In this document: piece by piece, positions 62,682-63,975 of the stretch
Position numbering within the stretch: position 1 is the stretch's first letter
How the letters are laid out: each line of letters starts with the position of its first letter
Assembly: GCF_053078305.1 (NCBI RefSeq)
Contig: NZ_CP166879.1
DNA length: 64,000 nucleotides
Direction: 5' to 3' (one strand)
Translations under genes and position numbers: made by a program
The notes under the pieces: generated by a model
The model's input: only the letters and a program-made list of their open reading frames with translations
Databases searched by the model: none
Told to the model about the DNA's origin: nothing

Positions 62682-62751
62682 AAATATGCGCTGTGCAGGG
62701 TTTTTGCTGTGCACAGCGTGATGCGCTTTAAGATATCGTGTTAATCTGCTT

Positions 62752-62947
62752 TCGCCAGCAGTGGCAATAGCGTTTCCGGCCTTTTGTGCCGGGAGGGTCG
62801 GCGAGTCGCTGACTTAACGCCAGTAGTATGTCCATATACCCAAAGTCGCTTCATTGTACTTAAGTACGCTTCGCGTACGTCGCGCTGACGCGCTCAGTAC
62901 AGTTACGCGCCTTCGGGATGGTTTAATGGTATTGCCGCTGTTGGCAC
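62752..62947 (+). ncRNA. Retron msr-msd region (template for msDNA), Ec107-like
   Basis: flanking inverted repeats a1 gccagcagtggcaat (62754-62768) and a2 attgccgctgttggc (62931-62945); internal palindromes (ccggccttttgtgccgg, gtacttaagtac, cgcgctgacgcgc); directly upstream of the RT gene; boundaries approximate. Confidence 0.6.
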
Positions 62948-62978
62948 CTCTTTTGGCCGCCGTGATGTGGAGAGTGGA

Positions 62979-63938
62979 ATGGATGCTACCCGGATACCCC
63001 TTCTGACGCTCGATTTGTTCGGCTCGCCGGGCTGGAGCGCCGATAAAGAAATACAGCGGCTGTATGCGCTCAGTAATCATGCCGGACGCCATTACCGACG
63101 CATTATTCTTTCTAAACGCCACGGTGGCCAGCGGTTGGTATTAGCCCCTGATTACTTGCTCAAAACCGTACAGCGCAACATTCTTAAGAACGTCCTTTCA
63201 CAATTTCCGCTTTCCCCTTTTGCTACAGCCTACCGACCAGGTTGCCCAATCGTCAGCAACGCGCAGCCACACTGCCAACAGCCGCAGATCCTGAAACTCG
63301 ATATCGAAAACTTTTTCGATAGCATTAGCTGGTTACAGGTCTGGCGTGTGTTTCGCCAGGCCCAGTTGCCACGTAATGTGGTAACCATGCTGACCTGGAT
63401 TTGTTGTTATAACGACGCGTTACCGCAGGGGGCACCAACTTCGCCAGCCATTTCCAATCTTGTGATGCGCTGTTTTGATGAACGCATAGGGGAATGGTGT
63501 CAGGCTCGGGGAATTACCTACACCCGCTACTGCGATGACATGACCTTTTCAGGTCACTTCAATGCCCGCCAGGTTAAAAATAAAGTGTGCGGATTGTTAG
63601 CGGAGCTGGGCCTGAGCCTCAATCAACGCAAAAGCTGCCTGATAGCTGCCTGTAAGCGCCAGCAGGTAACCGGGATTGTTGTTAATCACAAACCACAGCT
63701 TGCCCGCGAAGCGCGCCGGGCGCTGCGTCAGGAAGTACACTTGTGCCAAAAATATGGCGTTATTTCGCATCTTAGTCATCGTGGTGAACTTGATCCTTCT
63801 GGCGATCTCCACGCACAGGCAACGGCGTATCTTTATGCTTTGCAGGGAAGAATAAACTGGTTATTGCAAATCAACCCTGAGGATGAGGCCTTTCAACAGG
63901 CGAGAGAGAGTGTTAAGCGAATGCTGGTTGCAGGGTAA
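62979..63938 (+). CDS. ret: Retron reverse transcriptase (Ec107-like)
   Basis: ORF 62967..63938; from MDATRIPLL it is 319 aa; RT motifs (LKLDIENFFDSI; YTRYCDDMTFSG with the YxDD box); located between pyrE and the window end, the known site of retron-Ec107. Confidence 0.85.
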   Translation: MDATRIPLLTLDLFGSPGWSADKEIQRLYALSNHAGRHYRRIILSKRHGGQRLVLAPDYLLKTVQRNILKNVLSQFPLSPFATAYRPGCPIVSNAQPHCQQPQILKLDIENFFDSISWLQVWRVFRQAQLPRNVVTMLTWICCYNDALPQGAPTSPAISNLVMRCFDERIGEWCQARGITYTRYCDDMTFSGHFNARQVKNKVCGLLAELGLSLNQRKSCLIAACKRQQVTGIVVNHKPQLAREARRALRQEVHLCQKYGVISHLSHRGELDPSGDLHAQATAYLYALQGRINWLLQINPEDEAFQQARESVKRMLVAG

Positions 63939-63946
63939 GAAAAGCG

Positions 63947-63975
63947 TCAGGCAGACGTTTCTGCCTGACCGTTTA
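63947..63975 (+). terminator. Hairpin downstream of the retron RT gene
   Basis: perfect inverted repeat gtcaggcaga / tctgcctgac with 4-nt loop, followed by cgttt. Confidence 0.5.

Follow-up and report, generated by a model that had tools for sequence, protein, structure and literature searches.

Retron Ec107, also named Retron-Eco5, was first described by Herzer, Inouye and Inouye in 1992, as summarised by Simon et al. (2019; PMC6868368), in whose account it takes the place of 34 bp of palindromic intergenic sequence, has no mobile element in its vicinity, encodes a reverse transcriptase (RT) with a YCDD box singled out as unusual, and is expressed more strongly upon phosphate starvation or entry into stationary phase. 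Production of multicopy single-stranded DNA (msDNA) by Ec107 is reported in work cited by Simon et al. (2019) and Palka et al. (2022; PMC8989520), the length of the Eco5 RT-DNA is altered without RNase H1 (Palka et al., 2022), and Simon et al. (2019) also refer to antisense msDNA engineered from the Ec107 msd and cite, by title, an RNase H study of this retron. The gene adjoining Retron-Eco5 encodes orotate phosphoribosyltransferase (Mestre et al., 2020; PMC7736814). Here, we describe an element, almost certainly this retron, that lies downstream of pyrE at the end of a 64,000-nucleotide stretch of contig NZ_CP166879.1 (NCBI RefSeq assembly GCF_053078305.1), hereafter the window, and we consider what its lack of an effector gene may mean in the light of its relatives in other bacteria.

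Retrons are mostly tripartite (Mestre et al., 2020; Millman et al., 2020), but no protein cluster is associated with the Eco5 branch of RT clade 2, which joins RTs linked to phosphoribosyltransferases (PRTases) at a common node (Mestre et al., 2020). The genomes that host such orphan retrons mostly lack homologues of the known retron-associated proteins, and three options have been put forward for them, namely that the associated protein was lost, that effectors not yet known act in trans, or that the retron has a different function (Mestre et al., 2020). Likewise, a survey preprint scores the clade2_Ec107like group as being without accessory modules (SPIRE survey preprint, 2026; 10.64898/2026.05.14.725207), and the Ec107-like model is among the non-coding RNA (ncRNA) models most frequently detected in a 2026 metagenome survey. 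The missing effector is therefore already in print for the whole lineage, and the three possibilities raised in the initial annotation of the window (an effector-less element, a partner in trans, or a role outside defence) coincide with those printed by Mestre et al. (2020).

Retron Ec107 in the spacer between pyrE and slmA

The last 4 kb of the window carry the E. coli core genes yicC (minus strand), rph (plus strand), and pyrE (plus strand, stop codon at 62679–62681). The stop codons of pyrE and the convergent slmA (ttk) are 36 bp apart in K-12 and 1302 bp apart in the window. The K-12 spacer is one hairpin, CGCCGGATGA-aaag-TCATCCGGCG, of which the window retains nothing; replacement of the spacer was therefore complete. 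The element thus occupies the chromosomal position published for Ec107, in place of a palindromic spacer of ~34 bp and without prophage context, and its GC content is host-like (51.9%, vs 50.4% for the window). The RT gene within it encodes 319 amino acids from an ATG, although an upstream GTG at 62967 would give 323. Its product matches Pfam RVT_1 (4e-21) and contains NAQPH at residue 94, YCDD at residue 184, and VTG at residue 230, which agree with the definitions of retron RT motifs given by Simon et al. (2019). Fifteen diverse relatives share the catalytic and retron-specific motifs without change, and neither the Pfam profile search nor the alignment of these relatives revealed an additional domain. 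The best PADLOC model is RT_Ec107-like (3e-132), with RT_III-A second (4.8e-94). The protein belongs to a 90% identity cluster of 646 Escherichia RTs, nearly all of 319 amino acids, and is 98% identical (7 amino-acid changes) to UniRef Q05804_ECOLX, which we take to be the ECOR70 reference protein.

Since site, size, RT length, and RT motif all agree with what has been published, the element is, with near certainty as far as sequence can tell, retron Ec107 with the architecture described here, sharing its pyrE-slmA locus, its length of ~1.3 kb, its msr-msd layout, and its lack of an accessory open reading frame (ORF), and differing from it by allelic changes only. The initial annotation, which had named an Ec107-type retron with a 319-amino-acid RT in the slot downstream of pyrE and had seen no effector gene, was right in both respects; the finding is correct and not new, this being a long-known E. 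coli retron at its textbook site. The retron was found in 382 of 5426 complete E. coli genomes (~7%), with 381 copies full-length at the DNA level. Every copy is single and chromosomal, slmA lies under every listed match, and the alleles are 95.4%–100% identical to the window in DNA sequence. One of them, that of NZ_CP049201.1, matches the window at 100% identity throughout the retron region.

Adjacent to the RT gene on its upstream side, the RNA at 62745–62955 folds as a canonical retron ncRNA, in which a stem of the a2 and a1 repeats encloses a pair of msr hairpins and the long hairpin of msd; a conserved G follows a2 directly on its 3′ side (Table 1). The predicted fold has a free energy of -89.7 kcal/mol (z = -5.23; 0 of 200 shuffles were as good), and a repeat search returned 21-nt inverted arms at 62754–62774 and 62925–62945. 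The same structure was obtained with RNAalifold from an alignment of nine Enterobacterales sequences (two E. coli alleles, two metagenomic Enterobacteriaceae, Pseudocitrobacter, two Leminorella, Pragia, and Budvicia), where 25 of the 65 pairs show compensatory double changes. In a pair-count control, 95.9% of the cells were paired vs 86.3% in shuffles, none of 500 shuffles reached the observed value, and sliding the 3′ partners by 1–3 columns lowered pairing to 28–44%. Repeats, fold, and covariation together confirm the msr/msd with a1/a2 inverted repeats that had been annotated downstream of pyrE. An Rfam scan of 61900–64000 gave no match in the retron region, the only matches being sub-threshold ones to RyhB and MicX on the rph terminator (61962–62007).

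Within this RNA, G62770 is invariant in all nine Enterobacterales sequences and, by analogy with canonical retron architecture, is predicted to be the branching guanosine. The limits of msd are approximate, as the 5′ end was set beside a1 and the 3′ end was taken from the published length of 107 nt; folded as DNA, the predicted msDNA forms a stable hairpin (-22.6 kcal/mol, z = -3.8). An extended -10-like element upstream of a2 may serve as the promoter of a transcript covering msr, msd, and the RT gene. A consensus promoter scan did not call it, and the pattern TGnTA(T/A)T is kept in the pyrE-site and Leminorella sequences of the alignment, that is, in most of the Enterobacterales sequences. 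With an RT 98% identical to the reference, all structural elements intact, and msDNA published for Ec107, the window allele would be expected to produce msDNA.

No effector gene accompanies these two parts. An anti-phage retron of the tripartite kind carries its effector as an adjacent gene or as a fusion to the RT, and the flanks of the present element are pyrE on one side and slmA, dut, and coaBC on the other. Only 72 bp of the insert lie 5′ of a2 and only 45 bp separate the RT stop codon from that of slmA. The latter space, put at ~60 bp in the initial annotation, is thus smaller still and, as had been stated, too small for an effector gene. Two small ORFs were considered and rejected, namely a 102-amino-acid ORF on the minus strand (62814–63122), which has no PADLOC match, and a 50-amino-acid ORF on the plus strand (62854–63006); both overlap msd, and the frames of both are broken by 1-nt indels in orthologous msd sequences. 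An effector-type ORF beyond position 64000 had been named as the observation that would overturn the claim of a missing effector. In NZ_CP049201.1, which is colinear with the window only at the retron end and was used for the downstream check, the genes that follow are slmA, dut, coaBC, radC, rpmB, and rpmG, all of them core genes, and the claim stands. As the space on either side is so small, the small ORFs are not conserved, and the RT has a single domain, the element is effector-less in cis.

Both ends of the insert bear a hairpin. The one directly 3′ of pyrE (helix 1 of the alignment) is kept in the pyrE-site retron loci with three compensatory pairs, and it is probably a pyrE terminator brought in by the insert in place of the K-12 hairpin, a function deduced from its position and form. 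The other does lie at the end of the insert, as had been noted, although its coordinates are those of Table 1 and not 63947–63975. Its T-run on the minus strand lets it be read as a terminator of slmA that would also close the RT transcript. This second hairpin is not conserved outside Escherichia, being absent from three pyrE-site loci (L005, L013, and L014) in which the ends of the RT and slmA ORFs share 4 nt. The insert thus has one hairpin per end, whereas K-12 has a single bidirectional hairpin shared by both genes.

Table 1. Positions of the parts of the retron locus, numbered in the window, and of RT genes at related loci, numbered within each locus (L handles)
Feature	Position	Strand	Basis or remark
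Retron-Ec107 insert	62682..63983	none	1302 bp, pyrE stop to slmA stop
Hairpin directly 3′ of pyrE, CGCTGTGCA / 12-nt loop / TGCACAGCG	62689..62718	+	Perfect 9-bp inverted repeat
Extended -10-like element TGtTAATCT	62739..62747	+	Ends 7 nt 5′ of a2; putative promoter of msr-msd-RT transcript
a2 inverted repeat, 5′ arm of closing stem	62754..62769	+	Helix 2: 16 pairs, 7 with compensatory changes
Predicted branching (priming) guanosine	62770	+	First unpaired base 3′ of a2, in invariant AATAGC
Two msr stem-loops	62774..62794 and 62795..62815	+	Helices 3 and 4: compensatory in 5/7 and 4/9 pairs
msd, template of 107-nt msDNA	62823..62929	-	Approximate; long stem 62839-62917; helices 5-8
a1 inverted repeat, 3′ arm of closing stem	62930..62945	+	Repeat search, fold, covariation
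Retron RT gene, 319 aa	62979..63938	+	Pfam RVT_1, PADLOC, retron motifs
3′ hairpin, GTCAGGCAG-ACGTTT-CTGCCTGAC	63946..63969	-	Terminator scan; 9-10 bp stem; minus-strand GCTTTTCTT after stem
slmA 3′ end (flank, convergent core gene bounding insert)	63984..64000	-	Stop codon 63984-63986; annotation of locus 100% identical over retron region
RT genes in the pyrE-slmA slot	L003 ~6001-6963; L004 ~1342-2304; L005 ~6001-6960; L013 ~8001-8960; L014 ~6502-7461		68-72% identity
Solo RT genes of Budviciaceae	L006/L007 6001-6972; L012 2448-3410; L008 6001-6999; L015 ~7947-8945		

Solo retrons of the Ec107-like lineage in other bacteria

Relatives of the window RT were collected from a search of 5.8 billion proteins, after which their contigs were fetched, and from a species-level scan with one genome per species (80 loci). 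In Pseudocitrobacter and further Enterobacteriaceae, the slot between pyrE and slmA likewise holds an RT, of 68–72% identity, so that several genera of this family have the retron settled at one and the same core-genome position. More distant solo RTs lie elsewhere, between cyaY and cyaA in Leminorella (59–62% identity) and between cdaR-like and garD-like genes in Pragia and Budvicia (54–55% identity), so that the Budviciaceae solo retrons, too, lie between convergent pairs of core genes. Solo RTs were also found in Robinsoniella and a Neisseria (49–52% identity).

In a survey of neighbouring genes (crude ORF calling and all-vs-all BLAST of four genes on each side of the RT), no accessory neighbour family recurred over unrelated loci among the ~70 loci with an RT of at least 41% identity, the sole recurring families there being syntenic host genes. 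A recurrent pair of ~296 and ~97 amino acids upstream of the RT was confined to the seven most distant loci (36–40% RT identity), and PADLOC identified its members as PRTase_III-A (1.6e-72) and WH_III-A (3e-16). A covariance model built from the nine Enterobacterales ncRNAs only found this RNA immediately 5′ of the RT gene and on its strand in ~60 of 91 sources, including Lachnospiraceae, Oscillospiraceae, Listeria, and Neisseria, and had no match in the seven III-A loci. Because the matches extend over ~60 loci and spare the III-A loci, the solo state is that of a broad, coherent lineage and not an accident of E. coli. The layout of an RT with an Ec107-type ncRNA and no recurrent accessory gene is that of the clade-2 Ec107-like solo retrons (Mestre et al., 2020; SPIRE survey preprint, 2026), seen here in Pseudocitrobacter, Leminorella, Pragia, Budvicia, Neisseria, Listeria, Lachnospiraceae, and Oscillospiraceae; the members differ in that insertion sites vary by lineage and RT identity to the window falls to ~40%.

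The nearest typed relatives of the window RT, by the second-ranking PADLOC model, are type III-A retrons (notably III-A1, clade 2), which have a node in common with the Ec107 branch in the tree of Mestre et al. (2020). Type III-A retrons are recognised by a PRTase-like partner, with or without a winged-helix protein; the window locus has neither, and the type III-A loci differ further in not being matched by the Ec107-type ncRNA model. The Ec107 lineage probably descends from a type III-A-like ancestor with a PRTase and a winged-helix protein through loss of these genes.

Among Firmicutes loci, co-directional ORFs of 350–400 amino acids that follow some RTs were considered as effectors and rejected, as they appeared by eye to be unrelated housekeeping genes (YchF-like, ROK kinase-like, aldo-keto reductase-like, and hydrolases) and did not cluster with one another. 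At two Firmicutes loci (L024 8994–9911 and L057 1313–2377; RT 40–46% identical), the gene directly after the RT and on the same strand resembles, by eye, a regulator of the helix-turn-helix-plus-WYL type, and recalls the WYL partners given for TXI_C2like retrons (SPIRE survey preprint, 2026). A preference for slots between convergent genes was also considered. Such spacers are used at 4 of 5 distinct sites in the proteobacterial lineages, while the whole family gives a raw count of 13/48 loci, or ~10/42 distinct ncRNA-positive sites (~24%) after miscalled neighbours were corrected by hand and redundant loci merged, against an expected share of ~15% that is a rough assumption and not a computed value. 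No enrichment is claimed, the whole-family excess being weak.

Maintenance, proposed mode of action and competing explanations

The ratio of non-synonymous to synonymous divergence (dN/dS) of the RT gene is 0.14–0.24 within E. coli relative to the window allele and 0.06–0.08 relative to Pseudocitrobacter, where synonymous sites are saturated, and these values indicate that the RT is under purifying selection. In the same between-genus comparisons, the flanking rph, pyrE, slmA, and dut genes have synonymous divergences (dS) of 0.7–1.2. The higher synonymous divergence of the RT gene may reflect either a weaker constraint on its codons or repeated gains of the retron at this site. In msd, E. coli is 75–78% identical to the other loci at the pyrE site (L003, L005, and Pseudocitrobacter), compared with 67–69% in the RT gene. 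A single origin of the insert is favoured by these alignments because the pyrE-side hairpin, with its compensatory changes, is common to all pyrE-site loci. The divergences also bear on which state is ancestral: the retron may be older than E. coli, most lineages having since lost it, instead of having been "inserted", as the title of the 1992 report has it.

On balance, we lean towards the view that the element is a maintained system of two parts and not a decaying remnant, its msDNA-RT complex working directly or through an ordinary host protein. The conservation of RT and ncRNA under purifying selection across phyla, without a recurrent neighbour gene, allows this reading. In retron Ec107, a single transcript, driven by a putative promoter just upstream of a2, carries msr-msd and the RT gene, and the RT binds the folded ncRNA and primes from the 2′-OH of the G after the a2/a1 stem (predicted to be G62770). 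The msd is copied leftwards, from a predicted start at ~62929, into a 107-nt hairpin DNA that remains branched to the RNA, and host RNase H trims the template. On the two-part reading, the active entity would be the msDNA-RT complex, which may act directly or via an ordinary host-encoded protein, without a retron-specific toxin, under starvation, in stationary phase, or during phage stress. As a single statement, the Ec107 identity, the architecture, and this functional reading merit moderate confidence; the further proposal that Ec107-like solo retrons at large form a genuine two-component system, with a mode of action unlike tripartite abortive infection and possibly tied to starvation physiology, is made tentatively.

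A model for how an RT system can work without an effector is offered by DRT2 (PMC12039810), which has the same parts list of one RT and one adjacent structured ncRNA without a separate effector gene, and in which the cDNA product itself is described as delivering the effect. The analogy has limits, since the RT lineages differ (the NCBIfam Drt2 model scores 56 bits on the window RT vs a cutoff of 390) and Ec107 priming is of the retron type, from a 2′-OH branch. A stop-free repeat gene like that of DRT2 was looked for and rejected, as an msd concatemer has 4–5 stops per frame on both strands.

Several points weigh against a maintained two-part system. No published experiment gives a phenotype for Ec107, which was left out of the phage assays of Millman et al. 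(2020, preprint), the only systematic phage test of retrons that was found in the literature. Purifying selection on the RT would be equally expected of an element selected for its own propagation. A dedicated effector in trans keeps a small probability, the effector survey having covered the retron loci and their neighbours. Lastly, the branching G and the ends of the msDNA are predicted placements, derived from retron architecture and the published length.

The alternative that fares best is an inert remnant, which has lost its PRTase and winged-helix effectors and persists by vertical descent as an RT-ncRNA cassette at a harmless place between convergent genes, making msDNA without benefit. 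The absence of an effector in cis, the presence of a PRTase and a winged-helix protein in the sister clade, the loss of associated proteins proposed by Mestre et al. (2020), the retention of the retron in only 7% of complete E. coli genomes, and the lack of a phenotype in the literature would all suit such a history. Decay would, however, be expected over distances at which synonymous sites are saturated, and dN/dS is instead at most 0.08 between genera, the catalytic and retron-specific motifs are unchanged in 15 diverse RTs, the ncRNA structure is kept through 25 compensatory pairs, and both parts are retained in dozens of solo loci across phyla. These sequence comparisons argue against an inert remnant, which we consider unlikely, and fit long residence in the chromosome.

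In a split system, the gene for a dedicated effector (PRTase-like or another toxin) would lie away from the retron in the same genome, and the RT-msDNA complex of Ec107 would restrain this effector, giving ordinary abortive-infection defence. The tripartite make-up of most retrons and the PRTase and winged-helix protein of the closest typed relatives lend this some plausibility, and trans effectors were raised both by Mestre et al. (2020) and in the initial annotation. Yet most hosts of orphan retrons lack homologues of the known partners (Mestre et al., 2020), defence genes normally stay linked, and no neighbour recurs in ~70 loci, which makes a split system quite improbable.

Very doubtful, too, is a selfish or mobile element that spreads by means of its RT and msDNA, for instance through targeting of the palindromic terminators between convergent genes, and is kept for that reason. 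Such behaviour would account for the replaced terminator palindrome, for the convergent genes at 4 of 5 distinct proteobacterial sites, and for the occupation of one site in different genera by RT genes whose synonymous divergence clearly exceeds that of the flanks. Against it stand the single copy per genome in 382 of 382 E. coli, never on a plasmid, the absence of any relative of at least 60% identity from phage or plasmid records, the lack of terminal repeats or an integrase, the host-like GC content, the pyrE-side hairpin common to several genera, which fits a single origin, and the weakness of the convergent excess over the whole family (~10/42 vs the assumed ~15%).

That PyrE itself is the effector, in the role that a PRTase-like protein has in type III-A retrons, is suggested by the PRTase-like nature of type III effectors and by the adjacency remarked on by Mestre et al. 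(2020), but is close to refuted, since PyrE has no PADLOC PRTase_III-A match at E ≤ 0.01 (a genuine III-A partner scores 1.6e-72), the window PyrE is 100% identical to that of the retron-less K-12, pyrE is present in 5411 of 5426 E. coli genomes whatever their retron status, relatives in five other genera (Leminorella, Pragia, Budvicia, Robinsoniella, and Neisseria) are not beside pyrE, and a conserved hairpin lies between pyrE and the retron.

As an instance, the element matters little, being a rediscovery, at the published site, of a retron known since 1992. Behind it stands the question of what a retron does without an effector; an answer would reach many genomes, the Ec107-like branch being large, and would put to the test the idea that all retrons follow the tripartite abortive-infection model. 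The comparative evidence adds to this only that "functional without a cis effector" becomes likelier than a relic. If the maintained two-part system is real, it would represent a retron mode of action distinct from the guarding of a dedicated toxin. As the lineage appears to be maintained rather than decaying, judging from its site across genera, purifying selection, covarying ncRNA, and lack of a recurrent neighbour, Ec107 in a native E. coli strain is a reasonable experimental model.

Other features of the window and of NZ_CP049201.1

The NZ_CP049201.1 genome carries, in a selC-linked island, a Bunzi defence pair (L097 29312–32475; PADLOC matches to BnzA, 3e-188, and BnzB, 2.5e-200), which is absent from the window, the two sequences not being colinear at that island. 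In the window, tRNA-SeC (selC) lies at 34257–34351 with only a fragment of a rhuM gene beside it (~34000–34200, as named in the matching record L098), and the selC integration site looks essentially empty, unlike that of NZ_CP049201.1. Genes for type III secretion translocators and a chaperone (SipD/IpaD-like, SipB-like, and SycD/LcrH-like) occupy ~25000–29800, beside yicS and nlpA, their names being read from L098, an annotated record of 99.2% identity. A sugar-use cluster of ~7 kb lies between yicI and yicH (~38650–45600) and is absent from NZ_CP049201.1; it comprises a BglG-type antiterminator, phosphotransferase system (PTS) components IIA, IIB, and IIC, two aldolases, a ROK protein, and a lyxose/mannose isomerase. 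Upstream of pyrE, rph (61234–61974) is full-length (238 amino acids in NZ_CP049201.1), whereas the K-12 allele is truncated.

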